Source of the DNA: Patescibacteria group bacterium
GTDB taxonomy: Bacteria; Patescibacteriota; Microgenomatia; UBA10105; UBA927
Direction: 5' to 3'
Length of the DNA: 64,000 nucleotides
Assembly (NCBI GenBank): GCA_023379025.1
Contig: JAMCTH010000005.1
Coordinates: forward strand, 20,663 to 84,662
The notes beneath the pieces were generated by a model. That model was given only the letters and a program-made list of their open reading frames with translations. It had not been told where the DNA came from and searched no databases. This document shows positions 40,363 to 64,000 of this stretch, piece by piece. The first letter of the stretch is position 1; every line of letters begins with the position of its first letter. The position numbers were made by a program, and so were the translations under genes.

Positions 40363-41562
40363 CTAACTCCTCTGCCGCAGGAATGCGGGGATGTCGAATT
40401 CGTCTTCCTCGGGCGGAAGATCATCGGAAGCAGACGGGAACGTTGAAGACTGCGCCGGCTGCACCGGAGTTTGCCGTGGCTGAAAATTCTGCGGCTGTTG
40501 CGGCTGCTGAGCCGGTTTCTGATAGACGGAAGTGTTCCCGCCCATGGCGCCGCCCGTCATCGCCCCGCCCATAGCCGGACGCCCCGATAATTCCCGGAGG
40601 CGCTTTTTGGTTTCGTCAAAGCCTGTGGCTATCACCGTGATTTTCACCTGGTCGACCAGGTGGTCGTCGATGGTTGCGCCGAAGATGATATTGGCATCGG
40701 GGTCGACAGCCGCGGCTATCTGCTTAGCCGCCTCATCCACTTCGCTCATGGTCAGGTCCGGACCGCCGGTGATGTTAAACAATACGCCTTTGGCCCCTTC
40801 TATGGAAAGCTCAAGAAGCGGCGATGCGATAGCGGTGCGTGCCGCGGTTGCCGCCCGGTTTTCCCCGACGCCGGTACCGATACCCATAAGGGATGATCCT
40901 GCCTTGGTCATGATAGTCCGGACATCGGCAAAGTCAACGTTTATAAGTCCCGGCATGGTGATAAGATCCGCTATCCCCTGCACCCCCTGACCGAGCACCG
41001 AGTCAGTCACCCTGAAGGCCTCAAGGAGGGTCATTTTTTTATCGATGACGTCAAGGAGCCGTTGGTTGGGGATAACGATGAGGGTATCTACTTTATCCTT
41101 CAGGTTCATGATCCCCTCTTCGGCGGTCACCATCCGCCGCGTTCCTTCGAAATGAAACGGCTTCGTGACGACGCCGACGGTGAGGGATCCGAGCTCGCTC
41201 GCGATCTCCGCAATGACGGGTGTTGCCCCGGTACCGGTTCCTCCGCCTTCCCCGCAGGTCAGGAACACCATATCGGTATCGCGGAGATATTCCTTGATTT
41301 TCTCCCGTGATTCTTCTGCGGCCTGTTGGCCGATGTCCGGATTGCCTCCGGCGCCCAATCCCCGCGTCAGATTTTCCCCGATCTGGATCTTCGTCGTCGC
41401 CTGACAGGTCAGAAGCGCCTGGGCATCGGTGTTGAGCCCGATGAAATCCACTCCCGCAATCTGATTGACACCGATCATGGAGTTGAGGGCGTTGGAACCC
41501 CCTCCGCCGATGCCGATAACTTTAATTTTGGCAAAATGCGCAATATCGGGTTTTATAAGCAT
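40363..41562 (-). CDS. ftsZ: Cell division GTPase FtsZ
   Basis: [14 protein letters not shown], the tubulin signature GGGTGTGA, a T7 loop and a C-terminal Q/P-rich tail ending [10 protein letters not shown]. Confidence 0.95.
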
Positions 41563-41676
41563 ACCATTTGACGTGAGAGGCAGGACCTCACCGGTCCGGG
41601 CAGAAAGCTGAAATCAGAACTTCGAGAGACTGCGGCAACGGTACGGATACCACATTCCGGATACGTTCCGCACCCA

Positions 41677-42975
41677 TTAGGGCAGAAATGACTTTACCAG
41701 ATCAACCACTCGTCCCGCAATACCCTTGACGGGAATATGCTGGCTGATTTTTCCGATATTTCCGAACATGGTCCCGCCTTCGGACTTTTCCATACGGATG
41801 CCATAGAGAAGAAGTCCCACCGAAGCCGCGTACGCAGGAGTCATAATCTCATCGATCAGTCCGCTTATCCGCGTCGGTGTTGCTATGTGGACCGGCATGG
41901 CAAGGTTTCTCCTTGCTGCTTCCGCTGCACCGACCGTCAGCGCTCCGCCTCCCGTGATGACGACCCCCGACGGCGTCATGCCGCCGAAGCCGCTGCGCTT
42001 GATTTCAAGACCCACCATGGTAAAAATTTCGTTGAGCCGCGGCTTTACGATGCCTTCCACCAATGTTTTTTTCGATACCGTTTTCATCTCTTCCGAAAGC
42101 CCGAGACCGCTCACGTCGAGCTCATCCCCGATTGCATCCTTTTTCTGTTTGGGCTTTTCCTCTTCCGGGAGTATGGGCAGCTTGGGCGCTTCGCCGAGAT
42201 GGATCTTGATTTTCTCGGCGCTTTCAAGCGACACGCGCAGCCCCGCGGCGACGTCTTTGGTGATATTGATGGCGCCGATCGGGATAACGGACGAATACGA
42301 CAGCGCGCCTTCGACAAAGATCGCAACATCCGTGGTGCCTCCGCCGATATCCACGAGTACGACACCGAGTTCTTTTTCCGTATCAGAGAGGCTGGAAAAG
42401 GCGGATGCCAGTCCGCCGAATACCGCAGAGACGACTTCTATCCCAAGCTCCTCCACACACTTGTGGAGGTTCCTTACCGCGGTAGCGCCGCCGGTCACCA
42501 GATGCGTATCAACTTCCAGGCGTACACCGGTCATCCCGACCGGATCCACGATTCCCTCCTGACTGTCTACGACATATCCCCGCGGCAACACATGAAGGAT
42601 TTCCCGTGAAGAAGGGAGTTGTATGGCTTTGGCAGCTTCGATGACCCGACGGACGTCGTTTCCTCCTATTTCCTTATCGGGTTCTGCCACCGCTACAACG
42701 CCGTGCGAGTTCATGGAAGCGATGTGATTACCCCCGACGGAAATATACGCGCGTCCGACCGTCACGCCGGCCATCCGTTCCGCCGCCTCAACGGACTGGG
42801 AGATGACGCCTGTGGCTTCTTCTATGTTGACCACCTGTCCTTTACGAAGACCCTTGCTTGGCACTGTCGACACGCCCAGGATATTTGCCGTCCCCTCTTC
42901 CGTAGCCGAGGCAATAAGCGTCGTAATTTTTGAAGTCCCGACGTCTATGCTGGATAGGACATGGTCACGTGCCAT
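41677..42975 (-). CDS. ftsA: Cell division protein FtsA (actin-like ATPase)
   Basis: SSIDVGTSKITTLIA, DIGGGTTDVAIF and an amphipathic C-terminus; the start is taken at MARDHV, although the ORF track extends to 43032. Confidence 0.9.
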   Translation of the reverse strand: MARDHVLSSIDVGTSKITTLIASATEEGTANILGVSTVPSKGLRKGQVVNIEEATGVISQSVEAAERMAGVTVGRAYISVGGNHIASMNSHGVVAVAEPDKEIGGNDVRRVIEAAKAIQLPSSREILHVLPRGYVVDSQEGIVDPVGMTGVRLEVDTHLVTGGATAVRNLHKCVEELGIEVVSAVFGGLASAFSSLSDTEKELGVVLVDIGGGTTDVAIFVEGALSYSSVIPIGAINITKDVAAGLRVSLESAEKIKIHLGEAPKLPILPEEEKPKQKKDAIGDELDVSGLGLSEEMKTVSKKTLVEGIVKPRLNEIFTMVGLEIKRSGFGGMTPSGVVITGGGALTVGAAEAARRNLAMPVHIATPTRISGLIDEIMTPAYAASVGLLLYGIRMEKSEGGTMFGNIGKISQHIPVKGIAGRVVDLVKSFLP

Positions 42976-43126
42976 AAATGGCGTACGCGGGGATACGTAT
43001 ATCTTCATCCGCCGGGTACGAAATATATACACTAGTATAAAGCGTTTCCTCTGTCCGATACAACAGGTTTATTCTGATATGGTATTCTTTGACCGGCTTC
43101 GTCGGACATAACGCTTTTTGGTGCAA

Positions 43127-43816
43127 TCAAAATGTGACTACTGGTTTGTTGAACCGGAGATCGACGTGCGAAGGCAGCTTACCTTTTATTTTAAACCCCG
43201 CCATAAGGATTTGTAAAGCAGATCCGAGTGTTTTGGTATCGGCATCCTGGGAAAAATAGATGTCCGTTTGCGGCGTTTTTGCAAGAAGCGACGTGCTCTC
43301 ATAAGACGTGATCTCACGGACATCGAGATAGGTCCGTGTTGCATCCAAAAACCCTATACCCGTGAGGACGCGACGGTCCGATACCTGAACGCCTTCAACA
43401 AGCGGCGAGACGGGAAAAATGAGGACCGGCAATCCGCTCTGGCGCACGTCATCAATGACATATCCCTTATCATCCAGGCCGACCGTCCTCCCGTTACTTC
43501 TGAGGACAACAACCGCGTTCCGCGCCAGGACGGTGATCACCAGCGTATGCGGATATTTTTTGGATACGGTTAATGCACCGATAAGCGGATTATCCTCAAG
43601 AATCTGCTTTTTCAGTTTCGATGTTGAAAGAAACAAAAGGCTCTGCGGCAGCGTTTTCTGATTGACGTCCACCTGTACATTCTGCCCGACTACTTCGATC
43701 TTTTGTATGCTGCTCACCGCAAAAAGCAACCGGTATGCAACCCAGACGGCAAGTACCGCTACAATTGCAAACGTCAGAACTCTTCCGGTCTTACGAAGCC
43801 CGCGCCCCCACCTCAT
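43127..43816 (-). CDS. ftsQ: Cell division protein FtsQ/DivIB (POTRA domain)
   Basis: N-terminal TM helix, POTRA-like IQKIEVVGNQNV... and the FtsQ beta domain; the start is taken at MRWGRG, a 4-bp overlap with the murG stop. Confidence 0.7.
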   Translation of the reverse strand: MRWGRGLRKTGRVLTFAIVAVLAVWVAYRLLFAVSSIQKIEVVGQNVQVDVNQKTLPQSLLFLSTSKLKKQILEDNPLIGALTVSKKYPHTLVITVLARNAVVVLRSNGRTVGLDDKGYVIDDVRQSGLPVLIFPVSPLVEGVQVSDRRVLTGIGFLDATRTYLDVREITSYESTSLLAKTPQTDIYFSQDADTKTLGSALQILMAGFKIKGKLPSHVDLRFNKPVVTF

Positions 43817-44967
43817 ACCCCTGCCCCGCGGCGGCGGATCACCCGGTAGCATACCGCAACAATCCGCTCCGCAGCATCGCGGGGCACCGTATATGCATAC
43901 GTTTCCGCGTTTTTCCTGTACGGCTTCATTGCAGTAAACATAGCATCAATACCGGCTGTAAGACTATCCGGCGTAAGCGTCTCCTGGGATAGCATTTCGG
44001 ACGTGCCGGCGGACACAAGGAGTTCGGCATTCTTCTCCTGCTCTCCGCCGCCGGACCACGGAAGCGGGATAAACAGTGCATTCTTGCCGAGGGCGGCGAT
44101 CTCTCCCACGGTATTTGCGCCAGATCTGCCGATCACGAGATTCGCATGATGGTAAATCCAGGCAATATCCGTTTCATCAAAATACCGTGCAACGACGTAT
44201 CTGGAAGCCAGATGCGGCGCAAGTATGTCTTTACGTTGTCGGGCCTTCGTAAGAAAGTGCTGCCCGGTCTGATGGATGATGGTGTACCGCTCTAATAACT
44301 TGGGGAGTGCCTCCGCGACGATCTCGTTGAGGCTGACGGCGCCGGTGGTCCCGCCGGTCACGTAGAGAAGCGGATGGTGGGTTTGCGGCAGGGAAAACGA
44401 CGGCATTAGCGGCGGATGGAAAAGCCCTTTGCGCAGCGGAAGTCCGACAACCATCGTTTTTGCCCCTGACGGACCGGCCTGTCCCCCAGGAAACGAAAGA
44501 AGCACGTGCGACGCCAAATTTCCGATAAGCTTGTTTGCAAGCCCCATCGCCCTCGTCTGCTCATGCGTTATGACCGGTACTCTTCCGAGCCGGGCAGCCA
44601 GGACGACCGGAAGCGCCACGTACCCGCCGAACGACAGGATACAGTCCGGACGGTAACGCCGGACATATCCGTATGCGCGAATACATGCAAACGGTACCTT
44701 GGACAATGAACGTAGTGCTGGGAACAAATTTTCCCGAGAAAATCTTCCGGTATCGAGGGGAAGAAAACGGAGGGATTTTTTCCGAATAATCCTGAATTCC
44801 TCGGAATCGAAGCTATCACCTTCAAATGCACGGGGCCGCCCGACAAAAAAAAGGTTCCAGTCCGGTTTTTCTGACCGGAGCGCATCAATAACCGCGAGAG
44901 CCGGAGACAGGTGGCCTCCGGTCAGAAACAATGTCTGTGTGTGTTCCTTTGTGCCTGTTTTATCCAT
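43813..44967 (-). CDS. murG: Undecaprenyldiphospho-muramoylpentapeptide beta-N-acetylglucosaminyltransferase MurG
   Basis: GT28 N-terminus LTGGHLSPALAV and a C-terminal UDP-GlcNAc-binding region LYVTGGTTGA..., GRSGANTVGE. Confidence 0.85.
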   Translation of the reverse strand: MDKTGTKEHTQTLFLTGGHLSPALAVIDALRSEKPDWNLFFVGRPRAFEGDSFDSEEFRIIRKKSLRFLPLDTGRFSRENLFPALRSLSKVPFACIRAYGYVRRYRPDCILSFGGYVALPVVLAARLGRVPVITHEQTRAMGLANKLIGNLASHVLLSFPGGQAGPSGAKTMVVGLPLRKGLFHPPLMPSFSLPQTHHPLLYVTGGTTGAVSLNEIVAEALPKLLERYTIIHQTGQHFLTKARQRKDILAPHLASRYVVARYFDETDIAWIYHHANLVIGRSGANTVGEIAALGKNALFIPLPWSGGGEQEKNAELLVSAGTSEMLSQETLTPDSLTAGIDAMFTAMKPYRKNAETYAYTVPRDAAERIVAVCYRVIRRRGAGV

Positions 44968-46192
44968 GATGTCTGCTGATGTTCATGAGAATCCCCATCC
45001 CGATAAGCATCATAACAAGCCCGGAGCCTCCATAGGAGATAAGCGGCAACGGCACGCCGGTCAGAGGCACGAGCGCGACCATCGCAGCCAGATTAATGCC
45101 GGACTGTATGCCAAACCACGATCCGATGCCGGCCGCCAAAAGCCTGCCGAACCGGTCCGGCGCGTGAATGGCTATATGAAATGCACGCCAGATCAGGAGG
45201 AGGATCAGAACAAGGAGGGTCGTGCCTCCGACCAGTCCCGTCTCCTCTCCGATAACGGCAAAAATCGAGTCCGTATTGGCTTCCGGCAGATACTCGTATT
45301 TCTGCCGGGATTTCCCGATGCCAAGCCCGAACCAACCGCCGGAACCCAGTCCCAGCATGACCTGGCGCATCTGGTAGGAAGCGCCGAGCGGATCGCTGTC
45401 GGGGTTGAGAAACGTCATGATCCGTCCGGCACGGTACGGGGCGATAAGAGCAACCACCAAAGCCCCGGCGGCAAGAATCGGAAAAAGAAAGAAAAAATGC
45501 CGGACCGCCGCGCCGGAAAGGAAATAGAGCGCGAGCGCTATACCGACGATAATCATCGCGGTTCCGAAATCCGGTTCGATGATAATAAGACCGAAGATCA
45601 TTCCCATGAGCAGTAAGAATGCCAGAAATCTGCCTTTTTCCGCCGTACTGAACCACGCAGACAGATAGAGGATCATGGAGAGCTTGGCCACTTCCGCGGG
45701 CTGCAGGACAAAGAGGCGGAAATTTAACCATCGGTGAGCTCCGAGCGCCCTGATGCCCAACCCCGGAATAAAAACGAGGATGAGAAGACACATCGTCACC
45801 AGAAGAAACGGCAATGCGATCCGGTACAGCCTCCGGTACTCCGTCAGGGAAAATACAGTAAGCGCGGCATACCCTACTGCCATCCACCGGAGCTGGTCCT
45901 TGACGAAGTGGTAGGGATCGGAAAAATCGCGGATAGCAATGGCAACGGAAGAGTCATACACCATAATGATGCCGATGACGGATACCATGAGTACGAGAAG
46001 GACAAGCGCTTTGTCCGGCAGTCCGGAACGGTGTGCGCTCTTCTGAATATCACGGTGATAACCGCGACTGCTTCCGGAACGCCGGCGGTTCAGGAAAGCG
46101 GAGATTTTGTTAGGAGCGCGAGCCATAGGCCGAAAATGGAAAGAATGATGGATATGACCCAAAAGCGCATAACGATTTTCGTCTCCGGCCAC
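44960..46192 (-). CDS. ftsW: SEDS-family peptidoglycan glycosyltransferase FtsW
   Basis: Ten TM helices; LQPAEVAKL, FAVIGEETGL and PLISYGGSG motifs; located between mraY and murG. Confidence 0.85.
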   Translation of the reverse strand: MAGDENRYALLGHIHHSFHFRPMARAPNKISAFLNRRRSGSSRGYHRDIQKSAHRSGLPDKALVLLVLMVSVIGIIMVYDSSVAIAIRDFSDPYHFVKDQLRWMAVGYAALTVFSLTEYRRLYRIALPFLLVTMCLLILVFIPGLGIRALGAHRWLNFRLFVLQPAEVAKLSMILYLSAWFSTAEKGRFLAFLLLMGMIFGLIIIEPDFGTAMIIVGIALALYFLSGAAVRHFFFLFPILAAGALVVALIAPYRAGRIMTFLNPDSDPLGASYQMRQVMLGLGSGGWFGLGIGKSRQKYEYLPEANTDSIFAVIGEETGLVGGTTLLVLILLLIWRAFHIAIHAPDRFGRLLAAGIGSWFGIQSGINLAAMVALVPLTGVPLPLISYGGSGLVMMLIGMGILMNISRHHG

Positions 46193-47139
46193 CCGTTATA
46201 CTGCAGCCAGAGATGGAGCGGCGCTACACTGAAGAGCTTTTTTCCGAAGAATCTCTTGGATACAAGCTGCAGGAAGGAAGACAGAACTTCGACAACAAAT
46301 ACCCCGCCGATGAGGAGAAGGACCGGCCCCTTCCCGAGTATGAGTCCGACGGTAGCAAGCGTTGCCCCGAAAGACAAGGCGCCGACATCTCCGAGAAATA
46401 TGCGCGCCGGATGCACATTGAAGTAAAGGAATGCGAGGATGGCTCCGATCCAGACCGCCAGAAACACGGAGAGCGGTGTGTCCAGGATGGAGGCAGAAAT
46501 AATCCAGAAAGAGAAAAGCGCGATCATAAGGACGCCGCTCGCAAGTCCGTCCAGCCCGTCCGTGATATTGAATGCGTTCGCAAATCCCAGAATAAACAGA
46601 ACGGCGGGAAAGATATACCACCATCCGAGCTGTATGACGCCCAAAACCGGCACGTAGATAATGTCTATCTGAAGGTCCCGCACCATCCAGAATCCGATGA
46701 TGCTCGCCAAAAGTATTTCAAGGACCAGCTTATGACGGAGCCGCAATCCGAAAAACGTCTCATGCGGGAGGACGAACGTTTTTTTTATGTCATCGACCAG
46801 TCCCAAAAGTCCGAACGATACGAAGGTAAACAGAAGTATTTTCACTTCCGCGCGCATGGGGTACACATGGGTGACGGGATACCAAAAATAATGCAAGAGG
46901 AGAAGGATAACCGGCAGAAGGGCGGTCGTAATGGCGATGATGAGGAGCCCGCCGCCGACCGGCGTACCTGCTTTATTTTTATGGAGGCGGTCGAAAATCG
47001 GCGTACGGTTGTTGAAGGCATCAAGCGTTTTTTGCCTGAGCCGCTGGAATTTCAGGTGATACAGGAGGCGGATAAACGGAATAAAGAGGATGCTCGCCAT
47101 AAACCAGGAAAACAACAGCGCTCCGAAAAGTATGATCAT
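46090..47139 (-). CDS. mraY: Phospho-N-acetylmuramoyl-pentapeptide transferase MraY
   Basis: VDDIKK, NAFNITDGLDGLASG (the DDxxD / NxxNxxDGIDGL motifs) and HH near the C-terminus; the start is taken at MIILFG. Confidence 0.9.
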   Translation of the reverse strand: MIILFGALLFSWFMASILFIPFIRLLYHLKFQRLRQKTLDAFNNRTPIFDRLHKNKAGTPVGGGLLIIAITTALLPVILLLLHYFWYPVTHVYPMRAEVKILLFTFVSFGLLGLVDDIKKTFVLPHETFFGLRLRHKLVLEILLASIIGFWMVRDLQIDIIYVPVLGVIQLGWWYIFPAVLFILGFANAFNITDGLDGLASGVLMIALFSFWIISASILDTPLSVFLAVWIGAILAFLYFNVHPARIFLGDVGALSFGATLATVGLILGKGPVLLLIGGVFVVEVLSSFLQLVSKRFFGKKLFSVAPLHLWLQYNGWPETKIVMRFWVISIILSIFGLWLALLTKSPLS

Positions 47140-47155
47140 AATATTCCCCTCGCCT

Positions 47156-47536
47156 CTAGTACCCCAAAAAACGCGGAACGATATGCGGCCAGAAGACAAT
47201 AACAGCGATAACCACCGCACCTATAGCGGTCAGAAGCATCATGCCTGCGGATACGTCTTTGGCGATCTTGGCTTCTTTTTTCCACTCCCGGGTTATAAGA
47301 TCCGTCATGGCCTCAAGTGCCGTATTGACCATCTCCGCGGAAAGACCAAGCACGACGGCAAAAATGAGAAGCACTGTTTCCGTGCGCGACAAGCCGAACC
47401 AAACGCTTCCGGCAAGCACACAGGCGGACAGGATAAGATGTATGCGGAAATTCGGTTGTGTGCGAAACGCCCAGACCATACCCTCGCATGCCGCACGGAA
47501 TGAAACATGATGTCGATGGAGCGTATCTGTAAGCAT
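47156..47536 (-). CDS. dgkA: Diacylglycerol kinase / undecaprenol kinase (DgkA family)
   Basis: 126 aa with three TM helices and SAEMVNTALEAMTD (the DgkA EcNTAIE motif). Confidence 0.7.
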   Translation of the reverse strand: MLTDTLHRHHVSFRAACEGMVWAFRTQPNFRIHLILSACVLAGSVWFGLSRTETVLLIFAVVLGLSAEMVNTALEAMTDLITREWKKEAKIAKDVSAGMMLLTAIGAVVIAVIVFWPHIVPRFLGY

Positions 47537-47620
47537 TGTCTCACATACTAGTATACCCCAAGGAAATTCTGAAATACAATGAAGCTCTCCCGGGCTTCCC
47601 GTACGGCTTCCCGGACCCTG

Positions 47621-48649: not shown

Positions 48650-48751
48650 TACACCCCTATCCTAACCCCTTCTGCACGGAAAATCCCGGTGTCACAGAAC
48701 CGGCGAGAAAGAGAAGAAGCGCGTTGATCATCCAGCGTATGATAAGCGGCG

Positions 48752-49432: not shown

Positions 49433-49441
49433 AGAATGCTG

Positions 49442-50404: not shown

Positions 50405-50435
50405 GCTACCTGCAAGTATACCTCCCTTCGGGTAT

Positions 50436-53883: not shown

Positions 53884-53887
53884 ACCG

Positions 53888-56526: not shown

Positions 56527-57509
56527 CAGAAATCCCCCATACGCCGTATTTCTTCCTCAAGCGTCACGCCGTACTGATCATGAACGCGCCGGCGCATTTC
56601 CTCTATCAATTGTACAACATCTGAAGCCTTCGCATGCCCCAGATTGATGATAAAATTCGCATGGACCGGAGACACCTGTGCATCTCCGACGCGATATCCT
56701 TTAAGCCCGGCGTGATCGATCAGAAACCCTGCTGATGTGGTGTGATTCGGGGTCGGAATGGAAATGGCCTCCGATACCGTCAGATTACGGAACGTGCACC
56801 CCGGGGAGGAAACCCCCTGAGGCTGCGTCTTCCTGCGGTATCCGATACTTTCATTGGCTGTCTTCCATAACAGCTCCTTGTCGCCCGGAGTGAGGGCAAA
56901 CACAACCCGGAGCACGATATCCGCCGTCTTCTGCATATGGCTTGTGTCATAGGAAAAACGGAAATATGCCCTGGGAACGGTTTGCACCTCATTGTCCCCG
57001 TTCAGAATCGTCGCCTGATAGACCGCGTCTCCGACAGCACCCTCCGGATGGGTCCATTTTGAATTCATAAAGACAGCGCCTCCTACCGTTCCGGGAAGAC
57101 CGAGATGCATTTCCAGTCCCCCGAGCCCCTCCTCAATCGTGGTCCTCACGAGCTGGTTCATCCCGAGGCCGCTGTCCGCTTCCACGTATACCTTTCCGGA
57201 CTGTTTTTTCCCTTTCTGTATGACTCCCGTAGCACCGCGTATGGAAACGGAGGAGGTAAGGTTCCGTATGACCAACCCCTTCATGCCCCGATCTCCTATC
57301 AGGATATTTGACCCGCCTCCCAGTACGGTAACGGACAGGGAGAGCGATCTTCCGAGACAGACGGCGCGGGCCAGTTCCTCCGCAGACCGGATTTCGATAA
57401 AGTATTCAGCGGGCCCCCCGATTTTAAAGGTGGTATACGGAGCAAGCGGCACATCTCTTCCGACCGTATCGCCGAATTCTTTTTTGAGTTCAGAGAATGG
57501 ATTATTCAT
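56526..57509 (-). CDS. murB: UDP-N-acetylenolpyruvoylglucosamine reductase
   Basis: PLAPYTTFKIGGPAEYF FAD-binding motif, GGGSNIL; the start is taken at MNNPFSEL, abutting the murC stop. Confidence 0.85.
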   Translation of the reverse strand: MNNPFSELKKEFGDTVGRDVPLAPYTTFKIGGPAEYFIEIRSAEELARAVCLGRSLSLSVTVLGGGSNILIGDRGMKGLVIRNLTSSVSIRGATGVIQKGKKQSGKVYVEADSGLGMNQLVRTTIEEGLGGLEMHLGLPGTVGGAVFMNSKWTHPEGAVGDAVYQATILNGDNEVQTVPRAYFRFSYDTSHMQKTADIVLRVVFALTPGDKELLWKTANESIGYRRKTQPQGVSSPGCTFRNLTVSEAISIPTPNHTTSAGFLIDHAGLKGYRVGDAQVSPVHANFIINLGHAKASDVVQLIEEMRRRVHDQYGVTLEEEIRRMGDF

Positions 57510-58954
57510 AGTATACCGCGTTTTACCCGTTTCTGCCCGTATACCAGCCTGGATGCGATGGCGCGGCTCCAGACATAGATGTCGCCTGCTCCCATGCATA
57601 TGACGACCGTATGATGAAGATCTGTTGAAAATAAATAGTTCTCCACATCTTCGGGCGCTTCGCCATACCGGACTCTGTGGTGATAAAGAGCGGTTTGACG
57701 GTACAATTGCCGGCCGGAAACGCCGCGCTGTTTTTTTTCCCGTGCCGAAGCATAGATATCGGTTATGATCACCTCGTCCGCATCTTTGAATGACCGGGCG
57801 AACCCGTCAAGGAGTGCGGCGGTCCGCGAGTAAGTATGAGGCTGGAATACCGCAATAATGTGCTGACCGGGAAACCAGTTCCTTGCGCCTCTCAGCGTAG
57901 CGGCTATTTCCCTCGGGTGATGGGCATAATCGTCATACATCCAAAAGCTCCCTCTGTGCGCAAGAAGTTCAAAACGGCGAAGCGTCCCGCCGAAACGTCC
58001 GAGACCCTCACGGATTTTGCGTTTCCCGACGCCGCAACGCTCGGTAGCGACAGCCGCAAGCGCCGCATTGGTTACATTATGCATGCCGGGAACCGCGATA
58101 CGGTAGCGACCTGCAGCTTTACCCTTTCCCAAGAGACGGAATGACGTTTTTCCGCGGGAAAACCTGACCTCCTGTATCCGGTAGGTGGCGCCCGGCTTTT
58201 TCCCTACCGAAACGGCGGAAATGGTTTTCCCGCCGAGTGAGGCAGACCAGCGGTCATCCGCCGATACGATGAGCGTTCCGTCCTTCGGCATGCGGTCGCG
58301 GAGCTTTCTGAATGCACGGATCACGTCGTGTACCGAACCGTACGCATCCGGGTGGTCATAATCGATATTGGTCACGACCAAAACATCCGGGCGCTGCCAT
58401 AAAAACCGGGGTGTCCGGTCATGACCGGGATCCGTCACGTATTCGTCCGCTTCCGCGACAAAGCATACCCCTTTGCCGTAATGACCGGCGGCTCCGATCG
58501 GCCGGATATTGCCGCATCCGATCGCATAGGACGGGTCGAGTCCTGCACCGACCAAAATTGTGGCGATCATTGCCGAGGTTGTGGTCTTCCCGTGACTGCC
58601 GGCAACCGAGATTTGTGTCGCCCCGCTCATATACTGTCCCAGTGCTTGGGCGTGGGAAAGAACCGGAATACCCTCCGCTATTGCCTCATTTACTTCGGGG
58701 TTAGAACGACCGCCATGGGCCCCGGTGTAGATGACGAGATCGGGGTGTTCTTCGGAAATATGCTTCCGGTCAAAGCCCCTCCGCCATAAAATACCGTGAT
58801 CCGACAGTTCCTGATCCGACGGAAACACTTCGTCCCGGTCACTGCCGGAAACACGGTTGCCGCGCTCTTTACAATAGACGGCAAGGGCAGCCATAGCTAT
58901 CCCCTTGATGCCCGTAAAATAAATTTTCAATCGTTTATGCGCCCACTCTGTCAT
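57506..58954 (-). CDS. murC: UDP-N-acetylmuramate--L-alanine ligase
   Basis: IYFTGIKGIAMAALA, AGSHGKTTTSAM and a MurC-type C-terminal domain. Confidence 0.85.
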   Translation of the reverse strand: MTEWAHKRLKIYFTGIKGIAMAALAVYCKERGNRVSGSDRDEVFPSDQELSDHGILWRRGFDRKHISEEHPDLVIYTGAHGGRSNPEVNEAIAEGIPVLSHAQALGQYMSGATQISVAGSHGKTTTSAMIATILVGAGLDPSYAIGCGNIRPIGAAGHYGKGVCFVAEADEYVTDPGHDRTPRFLWQRPDVLVVTNIDYDHPDAYGSVHDVIRAFRKLRDRMPKDGTLIVSADDRWSASLGGKTISAVSVGKKPGATYRIQEVRFSRGKTSFRLLGKGKAAGRYRIAVPGMHNVTNAALAAVATERCGVGKRKIREGLGRFGGTLRRFELLAHRGSFWMYDDYAHHPREIAATLRGARNWFPGQHIIAVFQPHTYSRTAALLDGFARSFKDADEVIITDIYASAREKKQRGVSGRQLYRQTALYHHRVRYGEAPEDVENYLFSTDLHHTVVICMGAGDIYVWSRAIASRLVYGQKRVKRGIL

Positions 58955-58957
58955 AGG

Positions 58958-59710
58958 TCACTCTGATTCCCCCGCACGCATCCCGATGATATTCAGCTGT
59001 TCACCGAACTTCTCATGGCCATCTCTTCGGAACGAATAAAAGCCCCGGTCGCATGCCGTACATCCCGGATATCGCTCTATTGCTTCAGCAGCCACCCCTT
59101 CCTCGTTAAGCTGCCGCATGATAACCGTTTCGAGGGAAAGACAGTGTTTGCCGTCTCCTGCATGCGATACGGCATCTCCGTACCCCGCATCACGGAAAGC
59201 ATCCGACCGGTCTTTTGGGATATGGTAACAACACCGCCGGATGTGCGGACCTATAACCACCCTGATGTCGCCGGCAGGAGCGCCGAGATCGTTCATGCGG
59301 CTGATAAGCTTCCCTGCGATGTTTCCGAGCGTTCCGCGCCATCCGGCATGGGCTGCGCCGATGATACCGGCAGATGCATAGGAAAGAATCGGCACGCAAT
59401 CTGCCGTCCGGATCCCCAAAAATATCCCGTGGCTCGCGCGTTGTGAACGGTCAGCGACCATACCGTCAACACGGTCTAAATCCGATTGCCCGGGTATCCC
59501 GTTTCCGGAAAATACTGCAACCGCCGTGCCGTGCGGCTGACCGGCCGTATAGCATATATCCCCGGCATCCATACACATACGATAAAATTTCCGTCTGGCG
59601 GCATCAGCGCGCATGTCCCCCAAAGCACGAACGGAAAACGCATGGGTAAGACCCGGTATGCCGGACAGCAAACGCGACGTAAGATACCCGGATGGGTGCG
59701 TCATAAACAT
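58958..59710 (-). CDS. pgeF: Peptidoglycan editing factor PgeF / YfiH-family (DUF152, laccase-domain) protein
   Basis: TADCVPIL, AHAGWRG and HIRRCCY motifs of the YfiH family. Confidence 0.7.
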   Translation of the reverse strand: MFMTHPSGYLTSRLLSGIPGLTHAFSVRALGDMRADAARRKFYRMCMDAGDICYTAGQPHGTAVAVFSGNGIPGQSDLDRVDGMVADRSQRASHGIFLGIRTADCVPILSYASAGIIGAAHAGWRGTLGNIAGKLISRMNDLGAPAGDIRVVIGPHIRRCCYHIPKDRSDAFRDAGYGDAVSHAGDGKHCLSLETVIMRQLNEEGVAAEAIERYPGCTACDRGFYSFRRDGHEKFGEQLNIIGMRAGESE

Positions 59711-59714
59711 GCGG

Positions 59715-60941
59715 TTACCTCTTTTTCCGGAGCGCCTTCCCGGCTTCCTCAACATCACTCCAGGGTATTTCCCTCCTGCCCCGGCAGAGACTTTGTTCGT
59801 GTCCCTTTCCCGTTATAAGCACGAGATCGCCCGGTCTGGCCGACCCGATGGCAAACACCACGGCATCCCTGCGCTGTCCCAACCTGTATACCGTTTTTCC
59901 TTCCGGTATACCGCCCGCGATCTCGTTCATAATGGTCTCGACGTTTTCTGTCCGGTAATCCTCTTCCGTCAGCACGATGATATCGGAAAAACGCGCGGAC
60001 GCCTGCCCCATAAGCGGCCGTTTGCTCCGGTCCCGAAGACCCGCGCTTCCGAAGACATGGATAAGCCGTTTCTTCGTCAATGTTCGCACGGTACGCAGTA
60101 CCTGCAACAGTGCATTCGGTGTGTGGGCAAAATCGACAATAACCCAAAACGGTTTTTTCTGCACGACCTCGAGCCTTCCCTTTACTCCTTCAAAAGACGC
60201 AATTGCTTTTCTGGCGATACCCATGTCAATACCAAGGGCCCCGGCCGCCGCAAGCGCCGCAAGACAATTGTATCTGTTAAACTCACCGGGTAGTTCCGTC
60301 GTAAACGGTACCGTTTCGGGGTTTATTTTTGCTTCCCTTCTGATTCCGTACGAAAAAAAGCGTTTATTGCGGAGAAAGGGGGCCGCGCGGGTATATGTTT
60401 CCGCATCATCCCGGTTGATAACGGCAATAGCCGCGCGCCGGAGCAACGACAGCTTGGCGGCCCGGTAGTGTTCCATGGTTTTATGCCAGTCAAGATGCTC
60501 GTGCGTGACGTTTGTCAGTACACCCACGGCAAACGGAATACCGAACACCCTATGCTGTGAGAGTCCGTGAGACGTCACCTCAAGGACAACATGCGTATCG
60601 CCGTGATCGACCGCCTTACGCAGATACCGCTGTACCGCAAAAGAATCGGGTGTCGTGACATGGAAGCCGGTGTCGTATACGCGGCCGCCTACGACCGCAT
60701 GGACCGAGGTGATCATGGATGCCCGGATCCCGGCCGCTTTCAGAATCGTGTAGATGAGCGTTGCGGTTGTTGTTTTACCGTCGGTCCCCGTGACGCCGAT
60801 GACCGTCAATCGCCGGCCCGGAAACCGGAACCAGAGGACGGCAAAGAGCGCAATGAAGAAATGATACAGCCCTTTTAGGCTCCGGAGCATACGGTCAATT
60901 ATAGCACGCATAAACGCCCCAAGTCGAACCCGTACCTGCAA
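59715..60941 (-). CDS. murE: Mur ligase, MurE-like (UDP-MurNAc-L-Ala-D-Glu--diamino acid ligase)
   Basis: VIGVTGTDGKTTT, EVTSHGL, VIVDFAHTP; its position next to ftsI fits murE. Which amino acid is added (mDAP or Lys) cannot be read by eye. Confidence 0.7.
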   Translation of the reverse strand: MQVRVRLGAFMRAIIDRMLRSLKGLYHFFIALFAVLWFRFPGRRLTVIGVTGTDGKTTTATLIYTILKAAGIRASMITSVHAVVGGRVYDTGFHVTTPDSFAVQRYLRKAVDHGDTHVVLEVTSHGLSQHRVFGIPFAVGVLTNVTHEHLDWHKTMEHYRAAKLSLLRRAAIAVINRDDAETYTRAAPFLRNKRFFSYGIRREAKINPETVPFTTELPGEFNRYNCLAALAAAGALGIDMGIARKAIASFEGVKGRLEVVQKKPFWVIVDFAHTPNALLQVLRTVRTLTKKRLIHVFGSAGLRDRSKRPLMGQASARFSDIIVLTEEDYRTENVETIMNEIAGGIPEGKTVYRLGQRRDAVVFAIGSARPGDLVLITGKGHEQSLCRGRREIPWSDVEEAGKALRKKR

Positions 60942-60952
60942 TCTTTCGTCGG

Positions 60953-62626
60953 TTACTGTGGCGGGATACCGTAGTAGGAAAAGAGATCATCGGCGATCCT
61001 GAAAAATACCGGTGCTGCGGTTTCCGACCCCCAGATCGATGCCGTCGGCTCCGAAAGGGTAACCAGCATCACAAACTTCGGATCGTCCGCAGGGGCAAAT
61101 CCCACAAACGATGCTATGGTCTTTTGCGCATCGTAGTGCCCTGCAACAGGAACCTGGGCGGTTCCGGTTTTCCCTGCGATTCTGTATCCGGCGGGTTTGG
61201 CCCATTTAGCTTCTCCCTTGTCAACGGCCGCGATCATCATCTCCGTCATGATATGGGCCGCTGATGTGCTTATCACCTGACGTATGCGTTTGGGGGGTAT
61301 CGGGATGACTTTTCCGCGGCTGTCCGTAATCGTTTTGACGACATGCGGCTCCATAAGCCAGCCGCCGTTGGCAAGAGCGGCAACAGCGCGCACCATCTGA
61401 AGCGGGGTCACGGCAATTCCCTGACCGAAGGACGCCGTGGCAAGATCGATATCCGCCCATGCATTGTCCGGCCGGAGTTCCGGTGAAGCCTCATCCTCGA
61501 GATCTACTCCCGTCGGCACTCCGAATCCGAACGCGTGAATAAGCGAAAGCATCCGGTCCCGTCCGAGGAGACGCTCTATGGCTACCATGCCGACGTTTGA
61601 TGAGTATTCGAGGACCTGCGTCGTTGTGATCTGGCCATGGTATTGATTATTCCATGTCCTGATGAAATATCCCGCAACAGGAACCGGGCCCGTTTCCGGA
61701 ACCTTCGTATCCGGCGTGACGAGTTTTGCATTTATGGCCGTGCCCATAACCAGCACCTTAAACGTAGAGCCGGGTTCGTAGGAACCTGCAACGATCGGAT
61801 TTTTATACACATCCCTGCTGTACTCCCCGAAATTACCGGGGTCATAATTAGGAAACGATGCCATAGCTAAGACCCCGCCGGTTTTCGGATCGAGTATGGT
61901 TACGGTACCGGATTTGGCACCGTACTGTTCGATCCCCTCTTTGAGCCGTTTCTCTGCAATATACTGAACCGTTCGGTCAAGCCATAGCGTAAGATCACGG
62001 CCGTCCTGGGGCTCAATGCGCTCGCTGTCTCCGATAAGGATCGGTGCTCCGCGGACATCCTTTTCCATTCTGAGCTCCCCGTCCTTGCCGCGGAGTTCGC
62101 GGTCATAATACCCTTCCAGTCCGAAATATCCTTTATCCTTGCCGTCCGTATCCGAGCCGACAAACCCCAAAAGCTGCGCGGCCATCGAGCTTTCCGGATA
62201 ATATCTTCTCGACTCGTTTTCAAACCCAAGGCCGTCCAGATGAAGCGCCTTCAGGGTTGCTGCGGTTGCGTCGTCCACTTTATGGGCCAGGGGAATCCAG
62301 ACTCTTCCCGGCTGGCTCAACTCACGCGCAAGGTTCGTCTCGTCTCTTCCGAAAATTCCGGACACCCCGCGGGAAAACAAAGGAATATTGTTGATCTTTC
62401 CTGGTTCGGCATAGACCAGATGTCCGATTTCATTCATGGCTAGGGGGTTGCCGTCTGAAGCAAAGATACTGCCTCTTAACGCCGGAAGCGTAAGTTCCGC
62501 ATAGTACTGAGCCTCAGCCGCGAGGCGCAGACTATCGGCGGCAACAACCTGCCAGTAAAAGAGCCTGAGAAAGATGACGGCATAAACGATAAGAATGATC
62601 GTAAACAGTATCCGGATTCTCCACAT
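60953..62626 (-). CDS. ftsI: Class B penicillin-binding protein (FtsI/PBP2-type transpeptidase)
   Basis: N-terminal TM helix and dimerisation domain; SxxK (STFK), SSN and KTGTA transpeptidase motifs. Confidence 0.85.
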   Translation of the reverse strand: MWRIRILFTIILIVYAVIFLRLFYWQVVAADSLRLAAEAQYYAELTLPALRGSIFASDGNPLAMNEIGHLVYAEPGKINNIPLFSRGVSGIFGRDETNLARELSQPGRVWIPLAHKVDDATAATLKALHLDGLGFENESRRYYPESSMAAQLLGFVGSDTDGKDKGYFGLEGYYDRELRGKDGELRMEKDVRGAPILIGDSERIEPQDGRDLTLWLDRTVQYIAEKRLKEGIEQYGAKSGTVTILDPKTGGVLAMASFPNYDPGNFGEYSRDVYKNPIVAGSYEPGSTFKVLVMGTAINAKLVTPDTKVPETGPVPVAGYFIRTWNNQYHGQITTTQVLEYSSNVGMVAIERLLGRDRMLSLIHAFGFGVPTGVDLEDEASPELRPDNAWADIDLATASFGQGIAVTPLQMVRAVAALANGGWLMEPHVVKTITDSRGKVIPIPPKRIRQVISTSAAHIMTEMMIAAVDKGEAKWAKPAGYRIAGKTGTAQVPVAGHYDAQKTIASFVGFAPADDPKFVMLVTLSEPTASIWGSETAAPVFFRIADDLFSYYGIPPQ

Positions 62627-62659
62627 AGGCTGGTATCCGTACAGTGTAACACGAAGACA

Positions 62660-62953
62660 TTAGCGGATGTTCTGAAGTGCCACCTGCTCCTCGCCGAGAG
62701 AGAGGTATGTGGGTGTTGCCGTAAAACCCATTGCCGCGGCTTTTGCTTCAATTGTCAGAAGAGAGCTTGCAGATGCTACTTTTTGGCTTAACAGCTCGTT
62801 TTCCGTCCGGAGCGTTTCGATATCGCTATCAAGCTGCATGGCGTTCCGGCTCATGCCGGCAAATTCGTTACTCAAACCGATCTCAACAACGACCAGCACC
62901 GCCGCAATGAGCGGCATGACACTGAATATGATTTTTATGCCCTTTTGTATCAT
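62660..62953 (-). CDS. ftsL: Cell division protein FtsL-like
   Basis: 97 aa, a single TM helix followed by a coiled coil (DSDIETLRTENELLSQKVA), between rsmH and ftsI. Confidence 0.6.
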   Translation of the reverse strand: MIQKGIKIIFSVMPLIAAVLVVVEIGLSNEFAGMSRNAMQLDSDIETLRTENELLSQKVASASSLLTIEAKAAAMGFTATPTYLSLGEEQVALQNIR

Positions 62954-63834
62954 AGTTTTTCCGCAACGCGCAGTTTTGCGCTTCTTGCACGTCTATTCTG
63001 AGACAGTTCCCGGGCATTTGGTGTCAGCGGTTTTTTCGTTACCATGTGCCACGGACCGGTGCGCATTTCCTGTTTGACCATACGGTCTTCCAGCGAATGA
63101 AAACTCAAAACGACCAGTCTTCCGCCACGCTTTACGAGTACCCGCGATCCCTCAAGACCTTCCCTGAGCGCTCCCATTTCGTCGTTTACCGCGATCCTGA
63201 GCGCCTGATAAACCCTCGCGGCAATCCCGGGAATTTCCGCAATGTGGTGACCCGCATCCTTCACTATTGCCATGAGTCCGTCTGCCGTTTTCACCGGTCT
63301 TACCGAACGGGCGCGCACAATACCATGAGCAATGCGCCGAGCAGACTGTTCTTCACCATATGTTGCCAGAATTTCATACAAGTCATCCTCCGACAGACGG
63401 CGTAGTAGTGATTCCCCTGTTTCACCGCTCGTTCTGTCAAACCGAAGATCAATAGGTGCATCAGGAAACCGATAACTGAATCCCCGCTCTTTGGTATCGA
63501 GCTCAAAGCTCGATACCCCGAGATCAAACAGCATTCCTTCCACGTTCTCCCATCCGGTATCTTTGGCTATGGTCACCACATTGCGGAAATTCCCTTTTAC
63601 GATAATCCAGTCTTTCCCTTCCTCCGCTTCGGGTCGTACCCTGCGTAGGTTCCTCCGCGCTTCCGCAACCGCATCGGCATCCGCGTCGATCCCCAGCACT
63701 ATGCCACCCTGTTCCACAATACCCAGAGCGTGTCCTCCACCCCCTGCCGTTGCATCTATATACCGCTTCCCTCTCCGAATACCTAGGGCGTCAATAACTT
63801 CTTTTGCCAGTACCGGCGTATGAAATGTGCTCAT
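62950..63834 (-). CDS. rsmH: 16S rRNA (cytosine1402-N4)-methyltransferase RsmH (MraW)
   Basis: HTPVLAKEVIDAL, DATAGGGGH, SFHSLEDRMVK. Confidence 0.9.
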   Translation of the reverse strand: MSTFHTPVLAKEVIDALGIRRGKRYIDATAGGGGHALGIVEQGGIVLGIDADADAVAEARRNLRRVRPEAEEGKDWIIVKGNFRNVVTIAKDTGWENVEGMLFDLGVSSFELDTKERGFSYRFPDAPIDLRFDRTSGETGESLLRRLSEDDLYEILATYGEEQSARRIAHGIVRARSVRPVKTADGLMAIVKDAGHHIAEIPGIAARVYQALRIAVNDEMGALREGLEGSRVLVKRGGRLVVLSFHSLEDRMVKQEMRTGPWHMVTKKPLTPNARELSQNRRARSAKLRVAEKL

Positions 63835-64000
63835 ACGACCTCAAGTTTTGCCGAGTACTCGCTCCACTGCACCTTATCCCACAGTTCGAAATGATCTCCG
63901 GCCCCCACTACAACTACCTCTTTCCGGATACATGCGTATTCCTTGAGCTGGGCAGGCAAGAGAATACGGCCAAGCTTGTCTATTTCAACCTTTTCGGCTC
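63831..64000 (-). CDS. mraZ: Transcriptional regulator MraZ, C-terminal part (N-terminus beyond window end)
   Basis: The reverse complement translates ...IDKLGRILLPAQLKEYA...VVVVGAGDHFELWDKVQWSEY*, the second MraZ/SpoVT-AbrB repeat; its stop overlaps the rsmH ATG (ATGA). Confidence 0.7.
   Translation of the reverse strand, partial: AEKVEIDKLGRILLPAQLKEYACIRKEVVVVGAGDHFELWDKVQWSEYSAKLEVV

Follow-up and report, generated by a model that had tools for sequence, protein, structure and literature searches.

In the window, a 64-kb stretch of DNA, the 24 genes that run from mraZ to ftsZ (40363-64000, all on the minus strand) probably constitute the extended dcw operon that is standard in Gottesmanbacteria (a group of Microgenomates within the candidate phyla radiation or CPR), with murD located elsewhere in the genome. 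Gottesmanbacteria are ultra-small candidate-phyla bacteria. Nearly the whole peptidoglycan precursor pathway is gathered on one strand, between mraZ-rsmH and ftsQAZ; the steps encoded are archaeal-type GlmU, MurA, MurB, MurC, MurE, a membrane-anchored MurF, MraY, MurG, FtsW/FtsI, a DgkA-family lipid kinase and a FemX branch enzyme. A single feature sets the window apart from its nearest relatives: between mraY and ftsW the D-Glu module is missing.

Gene order and its conservation

ORF, Pfam and NCBIfam data reproduce the gene order read in the initial annotation, mraZ-rsmH-ftsL-ftsI-murE-pgeF-murC-murB-murA-GlmU-like-alpha/beta hydrolase-MurF-like-DegT-CvpA+CAP-MBL-FemAB-dgkA-mraY-ftsW-murG-ftsQ-ftsA-ftsZ (Table 1). 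Several starts did not hold, as ORFs had been over-extended; refined lengths are 398 aa for murE, 327 aa for murB, 349 aa for mraY, 388 aa for ftsW and 320 aa for CvpA-CAP. Two independently assembled Logan contigs from run SRR10278331 carry the identical order, with 9-10 mismatches relative to the window, and thus the cluster is not an assembly artefact. Inspection of junctions bears out the tight packing with many 4-bp overlaps: ATGA is found at mraZ/rsmH, murC/murB, abH/MurF, MurF/DegT, MBL/orf32 and murG/ftsQ, GTGA at murA/GlmU and TGATG at murB/murA. Promoter and terminator scans of the region speak neither for nor against one single operon, and the mraZ-ftsZ run is a putative one.

Table 1. 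Genes of the cluster and associated loci, with the basis of each assignment
Feature	Position	Strand	Basis
mraZ, 3' part, runs off window	63831..64000	-	translation reads MraZ; Logan contig: 133-aa PF02381
rsmH, 16S rRNA m4C methyltransferase	62950..63834	-	PF01795 on identical Logan gene; overlaps mraZ
ftsL-like small membrane protein	62660..62917	-	position and size; no Pfam match; kept in relatives
ftsI, class B PBP	60953..62626	-	PBP_dimer + Transpeptidase
murE, short, N-terminal domain 1 absent	59715..60911	-	TIGR01085 379 bits vs cutoff 257
pgeF, Cu-oxidase_4/YfiH family	58958..59710	-	PF02578 151 bits; TIGR00726 117 bits, below cutoff 141
murC	57506..58954	-	TIGR01082 387 bits vs cutoff 335; 3/3 Mur ligase domains
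murB	56526..57509	-	FAD_binding_4 + MurB_C
murA	55192..56526	-	EPSP_synthase 277 bits
archaeal-type GlmU, sugar-1-P nucleotidylyltransferase/acetyltransferase	53888..55195	-	TIGR03992 219 bits, below cutoff 292; ST0452 match
alpha/beta hydrolase (abH)	53155..53928	-	Abhydrolase_1/6; best NCBIfam EstV family lipase, sub-threshold
membrane-anchored MurF, TM N-domain 1-~130, then central and C-terminal ligase domains	51671..53158	-	TIGR01143 213 bits, below cutoff 288.6, residues 124-482
DegT-like PLP enzyme with hydrophobic insertion	50436..51674	-	PF01041 202 bits, only residues 19-207 match well
CvpA (Colicin_V) membrane domain fused to CAP/YkwD	49442..50404	-	PF02674 + PF00188; TIGR02909 YkwD 115 bits
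MBL-fold hydrolase, glyoxalase II-like	48752..49432	-	Lactamase_B 94 bits; GloB 65 bits, well under cutoff
orf32, candidate 32-aa ORF between MBL and FemX	48657..48755	-	only Logan gene call (L001) and overlap with MBL
FemX-type aminoacyl-tRNA-dependent transferase	47621..48625	-	FemAB 126 bits; PDB 6snr, 1ne9
DgkA-family lipid kinase	47156..47536	-	DAGK_prokar 105 bits
mraY	46090..47139	-	Glycos_transf_4; 66-73% identity to relatives
ftsW (SEDS), abuts mraY (empty murI-murD slot)	44960..46126	-	FTSW_RODA_SPOVE 320 bits
murG	43813..44967	-	Glyco_transf_28 N + C
ftsQ	43127..43816	-	POTRA_1
ftsA	41677..43008	-	FtsA + SHS2_FTSA
ftsZ	40363..41562	-	GGGTGTG tubulin signature in translation; 63-83% identity to relatives' FtsZ
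murT, outside cluster, same pathway	5154..6479	-	MurT_C + Mur_ligase_M
gatD, outside cluster, same pathway	4302..5108	-	GATase_3

Is the cluster atypical, as first thought? Most of its content proves to be ordinary for the lineage. The window comes from a Patescibacteria contig and its best named relatives are Gottesmanbacteria, where the order recurs in at least 12 contigs, and comparison of relatives shows the arrangement to be conserved lineage-wide (loci L003, L004, L005, L007, L009 and L087 to L092 share it). In Paceibacterota (locus L008) the order is largely the same, and a core of alpha/beta hydrolase, membrane-anchored MurF, DegT-like protein and FemX occurs across the CPR. The CvpA-CAP fusion is limited to a sub-clade (the window, L003, L004, L005, L007 and L091). 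Functions of the hydrolase and of the DegT-like, MBL and CvpA-CAP proteins are putative.

The gene content fits the Gram-positive-style pathway that had been proposed, with MurT/GatD for D-iGlu amidation and a FemX-type branch; the solved structures nearest to the latter protein are FemX of S. aureus (6snr) and of Weissella (1ne9). The lipid kinase is probably an undecaprenol kinase, by analogy with the Gram-positive DgkA family. MurE aligns from approximately E. coli residue 90, and its DNPR motif reads EDYR.

A further suggestion was that the GlmU-like and DegT proteins may make a modified nucleotide sugar, which the glycan strand would then contain. The N-domain of the DegT protein is indeed nearest to perosamine synthetase, WbpE and ArnB, and a nucleotidyltransferase/acetyltransferase is present in the same operon. 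The GlmU-like protein, however, matches Sulfolobus ST0452 (PDB 5z09/2ggo) over its full length (residues 7-412), and its gene directly adjoins murA-murB-murC. GlmU with MurA-MurB-MurC represents the ordinary UDP-GlcNAc route, and by its sequence the enzyme is an archaeal-type GlmU feeding MurA. In addition, Pfam scans of the cluster and the window reveal no 4,6-dehydratase or dehydrogenase to provide a keto-sugar substrate, and the GlmU-like and DegT genes are separated by those of the hydrolase and MurF. A modified sugar is thus extremely improbable.

The membrane-anchored MurF and its neighbours

MurF models match the MurF-like protein from residue ~120 onwards only, and the sequence up to residue ~130 is hydrophobic, as noted at the outset. 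The assignment of the two Mur ligases as E and F stands, with the MurE score above its cutoff and MurF the best match of the other ligase by HMM, PDB sequence and fold. In the AF2 model (pLDDT 90) the N-domain consists of helices 2-29, 61-80 and 85-128, and the top nine Foldseek matches are all MurF. Could the extension stem from a mis-called start? Approximately 20 residues of the N-domain are invariant in 25 homologues, which rules this out; the extension is genuine. The domain is found almost only at the N-terminus of proteins of 480-545 aa. MurFs from outside the CPR have a homologous N-domain (hhalign probability 97.7%, E 2e-12), among them proteins from Clostridia, Bacteroidales, Chloroflexota, Poribacteria and NC10. 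The anchored MurF lies within or beside the dcw cluster in Poribacteria, NC10 and locus L047, where a second murF is not seen nearby, and a housekeeping role may be envisaged. The ligase set is evidently plastic in relatives, as two loci (L083 and L084) have no membrane-anchored MurF in the cluster, yet keep the hydrolase and DegT-like gene.

The protein is thus a predicted MurF, but its substrate is only putative because the score falls below the curated cutoff and domain 1 is missing. It represents an old, multi-phylum variant with a polytopic membrane anchor instead of the UDP-binding domain 1. Such an anchor would place the last cytoplasmic step beside MraY, and substrate channelling might follow. 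Of 80 loci, nearly all have an alpha/beta hydrolase within a few bp upstream of the anchored MurF; its Ser-Asp-His triad motifs (LHGW, GHSFGG, WG..D, H) are conserved across phyla and the active site is intact.

Downstream of the pair there is a marked difference between groups. In 44 non-CPR loci ddl is directly 3' of the anchored MurF, but in no CPR locus; in ~25 CPR loci DegT(-FemX) follows the hydrolase-MurF pair, and ddl and DegT never occur together. Did DegT-like protein and FemX functionally replace Ddl in the CPR, by supplying or installing the C-terminal residues for MurF or transpeptidases, e.g. through synthesis of a D-amino acid or a change to the stem while it is carried on a membrane-bound intermediate? 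Besides the strictly complementary positions, the DegT-like gene overlaps murF by 4 bp, the protein retains the PLP lysine motif FSFGRDK and core motifs, and a hydrophobic insertion conserved across the CPR (W..QQ..HP...P.Y...GK) suggests membrane association. The argument, however, is wholly one of synteny, and L083 and L084 retain the DegT-like gene with no MurF in the cluster. Only the N-terminal PLP domain resembles sugar aminotransferases, and the DegT family is known for keto-sugar aminotransferases or dehydratases and not for amino-acid ligases. The supplementary tables for Southlakia epibionticum, a complete cultivated CPR genome, list MurD, MurE, MurF and FemA/B as essential, as well as MurT/GatD, but not ddl (K01921), alr (K01775) or murI (K01776). 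With essential MurF and no ddl, this organism has no such DegT-like gene beside MurF or FemX, and its only annotated DegT is canonical and non-essential. Replacement of Ddl is therefore highly unlikely. The absence of ddl from the cluster would reflect a lineage that, like at least this one cultivated genome, is without annotated ddl.

The empty mraY-ftsW slot

The reported absence of murD and ddl from the window was confirmed. The 64 kb were searched by tblastn with MurD of E. coli and of the CPR, MurI of the CPR, MurL, MurD2 and four Ddl proteins, which gave no match and no remnant of murD, murI, murL/murD2 or ddl. A Pfam scan of 30 further ORFs upstream in the window found MurT and GatD, but no murD or ddl, and the 8.4 kb beyond mraZ also have no D-Glu ligase of either kind. 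The absence of the two-gene D-Glu module is a clean one, as mraY overlaps ftsW by 37 nt. In six relatives the slot is occupied by murI-murD (L004, L083, L084, L087, L088 and L089) and in one by murL-murD2 (L090); in the window and in L003, L005, L009 and L091 there is no gene in it. The empty-slot loci (the window, L003 with L005, L009, and L091) are not each other's closest relatives.

Where, then, does D-Glu come from? MurE and MurT/GatD need D-Glu at position 2 of the stem peptide. Since both are kept, the D-Glu-adding ligase is most likely encoded elsewhere in the genome, but this stays an assumption, given that neither the 64 kb nor the 8.4 kb past mraZ contain one. Alternatively, the Gottesmanbacteria with an empty slot, including the one studied here, may truly have lost MurI/MurD, MurL/MurD2 and Ddl, and build their stem from host-derived peptides containing D-amino acids, or rely on broadened specificity of MurC, MurE and the anchored MurF. 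The clean absence of the module and the empty slot in at least four separate lineages are in keeping with this, and repeated true loss and repeated relocation account for the recurrence equally well. There is also a precedent for reliance on D-amino acids from outside, as the complete Southlakia genome is without ddl, alr and murI, and amino-acid biosynthesis is missing from CPR bacteria (PMC7143001). Yet the retained MurE and MurT/GatD, the essential MurD of cultivated Southlakia and the exchange of murI-murD for murL-murD2 in the same slot of L090, which argues for selection keeping a D-Glu route, make true loss rather unlikely.

Comparison with known systems

The canonical E. coli cluster is mraZ-rsmH-ftsL-ftsI-murE-murF-mraY-murD-ftsW-murG-murC-ddlB-ftsQAZ; the longest form has 17 genes, with murA and murB. 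The window shares the ends mraZ-rsmH-ftsL-ftsI and ftsQ-ftsA-ftsZ, the single strand, the mraY/ftsW/murG core, and murA, murB, murC, murE and murF. It differs in that murC-murB-murA come before murF, ddl and murD are absent, MurE and MurF both are without domain 1, and eight genes are added (pgeF, GlmU, alpha/beta hydrolase, DegT-like, CvpA-CAP, MBL, FemX and dgkA).

The MurT_C and GATase_3 pair resembles that of Gram-positive lipid II tailoring (S. aureus, S. pneumoniae, Weissella), and the 334-aa FemAB-family protein, which has no coiled-coil insertion, resembles FemX/FemAB branching enzymes, but scores far below curated equivalog cutoffs (NF047883, 31 bits vs 500). GlmU aligns with S. tokodaii ST0452, an archaeal GlmU-type bifunctional enzyme, in its nucleotidyltransferase domain as well as in its left-handed beta-helix domain; differences are the sub-cutoff TIGR03992 score, the bacterial host and the location inside a dcw operon. 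In the MurL/MurD2 route of Xanthomonas, MurD2 adds L-Glu, which MurL epimerises once it is part of the nucleotide precursor. L090 has a full-length MurL homologue and a MurD-family ligase in the slot; the window has neither gene.

The neighbours of H. pylori murF are presumably the EstV lipase gene HP0739 and ddlA HP0738. H. pylori MurF is described in PMC9448923 (citing Blair 2018) as an inner-membrane protein with four N-terminal transmembrane domains. By that description, both proteins have a polytopic N-terminal membrane domain where domain 1 would otherwise lie, with three predicted helices in Gottesmanbacteria as opposed to four to five in other phyla. The EstV family is likewise the best NCBIfam match of the partner hydrolase in the window, Clostridia and Bacteroidales, but in the CPR DegT-FemX takes the position of ddl as partner.

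Gene order and conservation of the cluster

Twenty-four genes were found on the minus strand by ORF listing, and the gene content and order given in the initial annotation are confirmed by this listing and by Pfam and NCBIfam. From a partial mraZ the order is rsmH, an ftsL-like gene, ftsI, murE, pgeF, murC, murB, murA, a GlmU-like nucleotidyltransferase/acetyltransferase, an alpha/beta hydrolase, a MurF-like ligase, a DegT-family PLP enzyme, a CvpA+CAP fusion, an MBL-fold hydrolase, a FemAB-family transferase (FemX), dgkA, mraY, ftsW, murG, ftsQ, ftsA and ftsZ. A 32-aa ORF between the MBL hydrolase and FemX is a gene call in the Logan assembly. The hallmarks of a dcw cluster are present on one strand: it opens (5') with mraZ-rsmH-ftsL-ftsI, closes (3') with ftsQ-ftsA-ftsZ and has mur genes, mraY and ftsW in its interior. 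ATGA overlaps occur at six gene junctions, with GTGA and TGATG at one each; promoter and terminator scans of the cluster gave counts not above those of shuffled sequence. Two independently assembled Logan contigs (run SRR10278331) have the identical order, with 9-10 mismatches. MurC has three domains and scores 387 with TIGR01082 (cutoff 335) vs 197 with the Mpl model (cutoff 389). The cluster shows a minimal host-dependent bacterium packing nearly the whole wall-precursor pathway in one putative operon.

Features of the window and of relatives' loci (coordinates without a locus name are those of the window)
Feature	Position	Strand	Remarks
murT-gatD	4302-6479		outside the cluster
PolX	8139-9986		family X DNA polymerase with PHP domain; adjoins LemA and M48 peptidase
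LysM protein ORF	9923-10807
tRNA-Asp	10042-10117		in 5' end of the LysM ORF
tRNA-Gly	10887
tRNA-Thr	13815
tRNA-Val	27947
Glycan-assembly cluster	16343-24610		Wzy_C, two GT2, two GT4, PMT_2-like protein
ORF, 245 aa	21703-22440		in glycan cluster; no Pfam match
ORF, 502 aa	22437-23945		in glycan cluster; no Pfam match
ORF, 670 aa	24821-26833	+	PARP-like acidic repeat and lipase/PGAP1-like alpha/beta domain
Second SEDS protein	31236-32321		RodA-like; FTSW_RODA_SPOVE 276 bits
Three ORFs, 159, 155 and 261 aa	37573-40350		no Pfam match; directly downstream of ftsZ
dcw cluster	40363-64000	-	24 genes
FemX	47621-48625	-
ORF, 382 aa	47579-48727	+	antisense to entire FemX gene
DegT-like enzyme	50436-51674	-
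MurF-like ligase	51671-53158	-	membrane-anchored
Alpha/beta hydrolase	53155-53928	-
GlmU-like enzyme	53888-55195	-
MurE	59715-60911	-
MurL and MurD-family genes	L090:16192-18818		at the mraY/ftsW junction
Cluster without membrane-anchored MurF	L083:4352-6243		Gottesmanbacteria, ~1-Mb contig
Cluster without membrane-anchored MurF	L084:4170-5925		Gottesmanbacteria, ~1-Mb contig

Is this cluster atypical, as had been proposed? Homologues of the MurF-like protein (~50% identity over 98% of its length) are mostly annotated as Candidatus Gottesmanbacteria, and a locus scan with one genome per species yielded 80 loci. The window order occurs in eleven other Gottesmanbacteria loci and is largely retained in one of Paceibacterota (see the table of loci); the window is roughly equidistant from all of these, e.g. 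in identity of MraY (66-73%) and FtsA (72-79%). A four-gene core of the hydrolase, the MurF-like ligase, the DegT-like enzyme and FemX is also present in loci of Saccharibacteria and of Yanofsky-, Staskawicz-, Nealson-, Wildermuth- and Woesebacteria. As core and order recur across relatives, the 'inserted' genes represent a conserved feature of the candidate phyla radiation (CPR). The arrangement is lineage-wide, an outcome that the initial annotation had itself named as counting against its view, and the description as atypical is not upheld: most of the cluster's strangeness is ordinary for the Gottesmanbacteria lineage. The CvpA-CAP fusion is confined to one sub-clade of the relatives.

The D-glutamate slot at the mraY/ftsW junction

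Relatives carry murI-murD or murL-murD2 in a slot between mraY and ftsW. In the window these two genes overlap by 37 nt, with nothing between them. The absence of murD and ddl from the window, noted initially, is borne out by Pfam scans of the window remainder, which found neither gene, and by tblastn of the 64 kb with E. coli and CPR MurD, CPR MurI, four Ddl, MurL and MurD2 queries, which gave no match and no remnant. In the Logan assembly the 8.4 kb beyond mraZ code for a hypothetical protein, a class II tRNA synthetase, RecO, DUF4012 and sugar transferases; neither murD nor ddl is among these genes.

Relatives' loci by gene arrangement
Arrangement	Loci
Window order, Gottesmanbacteria	L003 (1.218-Mb contig), L004, L005, L007, L009, L087, L088, L089, L090, L091, L092
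Window order largely retained, Paceibacterota	L008
Slot with murI-murD	L004, L083, L084, L087, L088, L089
Slot with MurD alone	L008
Slot with MurL and MurD-family ligase	L090
Slot empty, mraY abutting or overlapping ftsW	window, L003, L005, L009, L091
Hydrolase, membrane-anchored MurF and Ddl module	L012, L016, L020, L024-L026, L028, L031, L033, L034, L037, L038, L040, L041, L044, L046, L048, L049, L051, L052, L054-L056, L058-L068, L070-L074, L076, L078, L080-L082

Among close relatives the slot flips between murI-murD, murL-murD2 and empty. Six loci have a glutamate racemase and MurD (in L004, TIGR00067 198 bits and TIGR01087 340 bits). In L090 the slot holds a full-length homologue of the MurL epimerase (NF041275, 371 bits) and a 409-aa MurD-family ligase (TIGR01087, 233 vs 212). 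This pair represents the MurL/MurD2 L-glutamate route of Xanthomonas, which is thereby placed inside CPR; both genes are absent from the window.

An assembly artefact at the junction was considered and rejected, as the junction is present in the independent assembly and the empty slot in four other genomes. Among these, L003 and L005 form a sister pair, and the window, L009 and L091 each stand apart, which indicates that the module was lost from the cluster several times. The empty D-Glu slot is the one real difference of the window from its close relatives.

Where, then, is murD? MurE and MurT/GatD both require D-Glu at position 2. These D-Glu-requiring enzymes are retained, and the exchange of murI-murD for murL-murD2 at one and the same site points to a D-Glu route being under selection; on both counts murD has probably been relocated elsewhere in the genome rather than truly lost, and the finding would then be ordinary lineage biology. 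True loss of the D-Glu ligase, with which the searches of the 64 kb and of the adjoining 8.4 kb are also consistent, is unlikely in view of the same retained enzymes; were the slot's emptiness true genome-wide, it would imply a wall pathway that runs without a D-Glu ligase. It is likewise unlikely that some Gottesmanbacteria, the window organism included, make peptidoglycan without MurI/MurD, MurL/MurD2 or Ddl; in such a pathway host-derived peptides would stand in for the missing steps, or the conserved membrane-associated set of hydrolase, membrane-anchored MurF, DegT-like enzyme and FemX would have a new activity.

Precursor enzymes and the remainder of the window

The initial annotation suggested a modified nucleotide sugar, which the data do not support. 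The GlmU-like protein aligns full-length with an archaeal GlmU-type enzyme, Sulfolobus ST0452 (PDB 5z09/2ggo), residues 3-402 of ST0452 pairing with 7-412 of the query over both domains; its TIGR03992 score is 219 vs a cutoff of 292. From this match and its position directly upstream of murA-murB-murC, it would most simply make UDP-GlcNAc. The DegT-like enzyme matches PF01041 above gathering (202 bits), and its FSFGRDK aligns with the PLP lysine of perosamine synthetase; the core motifs are conserved as well. The match to sugar aminotransferases is limited to residues ~19-222, the N-terminal domain, the C-terminal domain being unmatched, and all equivalog scores are below one third of their cutoffs. 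A hydrophobic insertion of ~50 residues is kept across CPR. No dehydratase that could serve as its keto-sugar-forming partner was detected in the window with Pfam or NCBIfam.

The assignment of the two Mur ligases as E and F, put forward for checking, stands. MurE scores 379.5 with TIGR01085 (cutoff 257.3); the evidence for MurF is given in the next section. DNPR is the MurE motif for meso-DAP specificity; the window enzyme has EDYR, with Arg retained and Asn and Pro altered. The entire N-terminal UDP-binding domain of MurE is missing, and the first residues of the protein are hydrophobic or amphipathic in character (LKGLYHFFIALFAVLWF). This short form is also present in relatives and in the cultivated Southlakia (403 aa). 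FemX is a short form, like FemX of Weissella and S. aureus, with 126 bits to Pfam FemAB (gathering 24) and 31 vs 500 for the FemX equivalog. The plus-strand ORF that lies antisense to it is likely to be spurious, a shadow of the FemX gene.

Outside the cluster, Pfam shows murT-gatD, gatA/gatB, a second SEDS protein, glycosyltransferases and housekeeping genes. The SEDS gene is directly downstream of isoleucyl-tRNA synthetase and has no adjacent class B PBP. The region of the 670-aa ORF has a lower G+C (0.465) and a strongly negative GC skew (-0.17), and the three ORFs beyond ftsZ also lie in a low-G+C stretch (0.464). As tRNA-Asp falls inside the ORF of the LysM protein, the true start of that gene must lie further downstream.

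The membrane-anchored MurF and its partners

The MurF-like ligase scores 213 bits with TIGR01143 (cutoff 288.6); residues 124-482 alone match, and the score falls below the cutoff because the N-terminal third is unmatched. MurF is nonetheless the top Mur ligase family in the NCBIfam ranking. The first seven PDB hits by phmmer are all MurF (best, E. coli 1gg4, residues 88-439), and with an AlphaFold model (25 homologues; pLDDT 90, pTM 0.85) Foldseek places MurF at ranks 1-9, followed by MurE, MurC and MurD. An accessory ligase of the CapB/PgsB or cyanophycin type was rejected, since all three approaches rank MurF as the best family and, in Poribacteria and NC10, the gene stands at the position of murF.

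UDP-binding domain 1 is not detected in this protein (no PF01225 match). In its place the model predicts helices at 2-29, 34-41, 61-80 and 85-128. Could the start be mis-called? This was rejected, as ~20 positions within the first ~130 residues are invariant, those of the motif LW.VKEYR.DRM.IH..T..G among them, and a search of 1.84 billion representatives found the domain almost solely at the N-terminus of 480-545-aa proteins. Non-CPR members of the scan belong to Clostridia, Bacteroidales, Chloroflexota, Poribacteria and NC10; their MurFs, of 507-573 aa, have four to five hydrophobic helices and carry the related motifs HM.QLEGYK and KKPLVFT.RAKRL. CPR and non-CPR N-domains are homologous, aligning by hhalign profile-profile comparison with a probability of 97.7% (E 2e-12, 182 columns). 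In Poribacteria, NC10 and locus L047 the membrane-anchored MurF is located within or next to the dcw cluster and is the only murF in the vicinity; it thus seems to serve as the housekeeping MurF of these organisms. In the two Gottesmanbacteria loci L083 and L084 it is gone from the cluster; there the hydrolase directly adjoins the DegT-like gene, and murI-murD is retained.

The hydrolase gene is within a few bases upstream of the membrane-anchored MurF in nearly all 80 loci, and in the window the two join by an ATGA overlap. Its Ser-Asp-His triad is intact, and the motifs LHGW (oxyanion), GHSFGG (nucleophile), WG..D..P (acid) and H are kept from CPR to Bacteroidales. In 44 non-CPR loci ddl directly follows the membrane-anchored MurF (NF002528, 333-366 bits vs a cutoff of 262). 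Clostridia, Bacteroidales, Chloroflexota, Poribacteria and NC10 all conserve the resulting three-gene module of hydrolase, MurF and Ddl.

None of the CPR loci, the window included, has ddl within 10 kb; they carry the DegT-like gene at that position, in most cases with FemX next to it on the downstream side. Might the DegT-like enzyme substitute for Ddl in CPR? A PLP enzyme found CPR-wide at the usual position of ddl would fit this idea. It is weakened by Southlakia epibionticum, a cultivated Saccharibacterium with a complete genome, in which, as far as the supplementary gene tables indicate, the DegT-like gene is lacking along with ddl (PMC10633639). These tables list MurD, MurE, MurF and FemA/B as essential, together with MurT/GatD, and contain no K01921 (ddl), K01775 (alr) or K01776 (murI) and no 'racemase' (PMC10633639). 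Taken with the CPR loci that lack ddl, they indicate that its absence is not peculiar to the window. Literature searches on murD or ddl status in CPR found nothing specific.

The best NCBIfam match of the hydrolase in three phyla, sub-threshold, is the EstV family lipase. EstV is H. pylori HP0739, which presumably lies between ddlA (HP0738) and murF (HP0740). Literature searches for a hydrolase-MurF link found no proposed function for the pairing, a pairing of membrane-anchored MurF with a catalytically intact serine hydrolase that extends over at least six phyla. One report (PMC9448923, citing Blair et al., 2018) places H. pylori MurF in the inner membrane and gives it four transmembrane domains at the N-terminus; the membrane-anchored MurF is of this already known kind and is not restricted to CPR.
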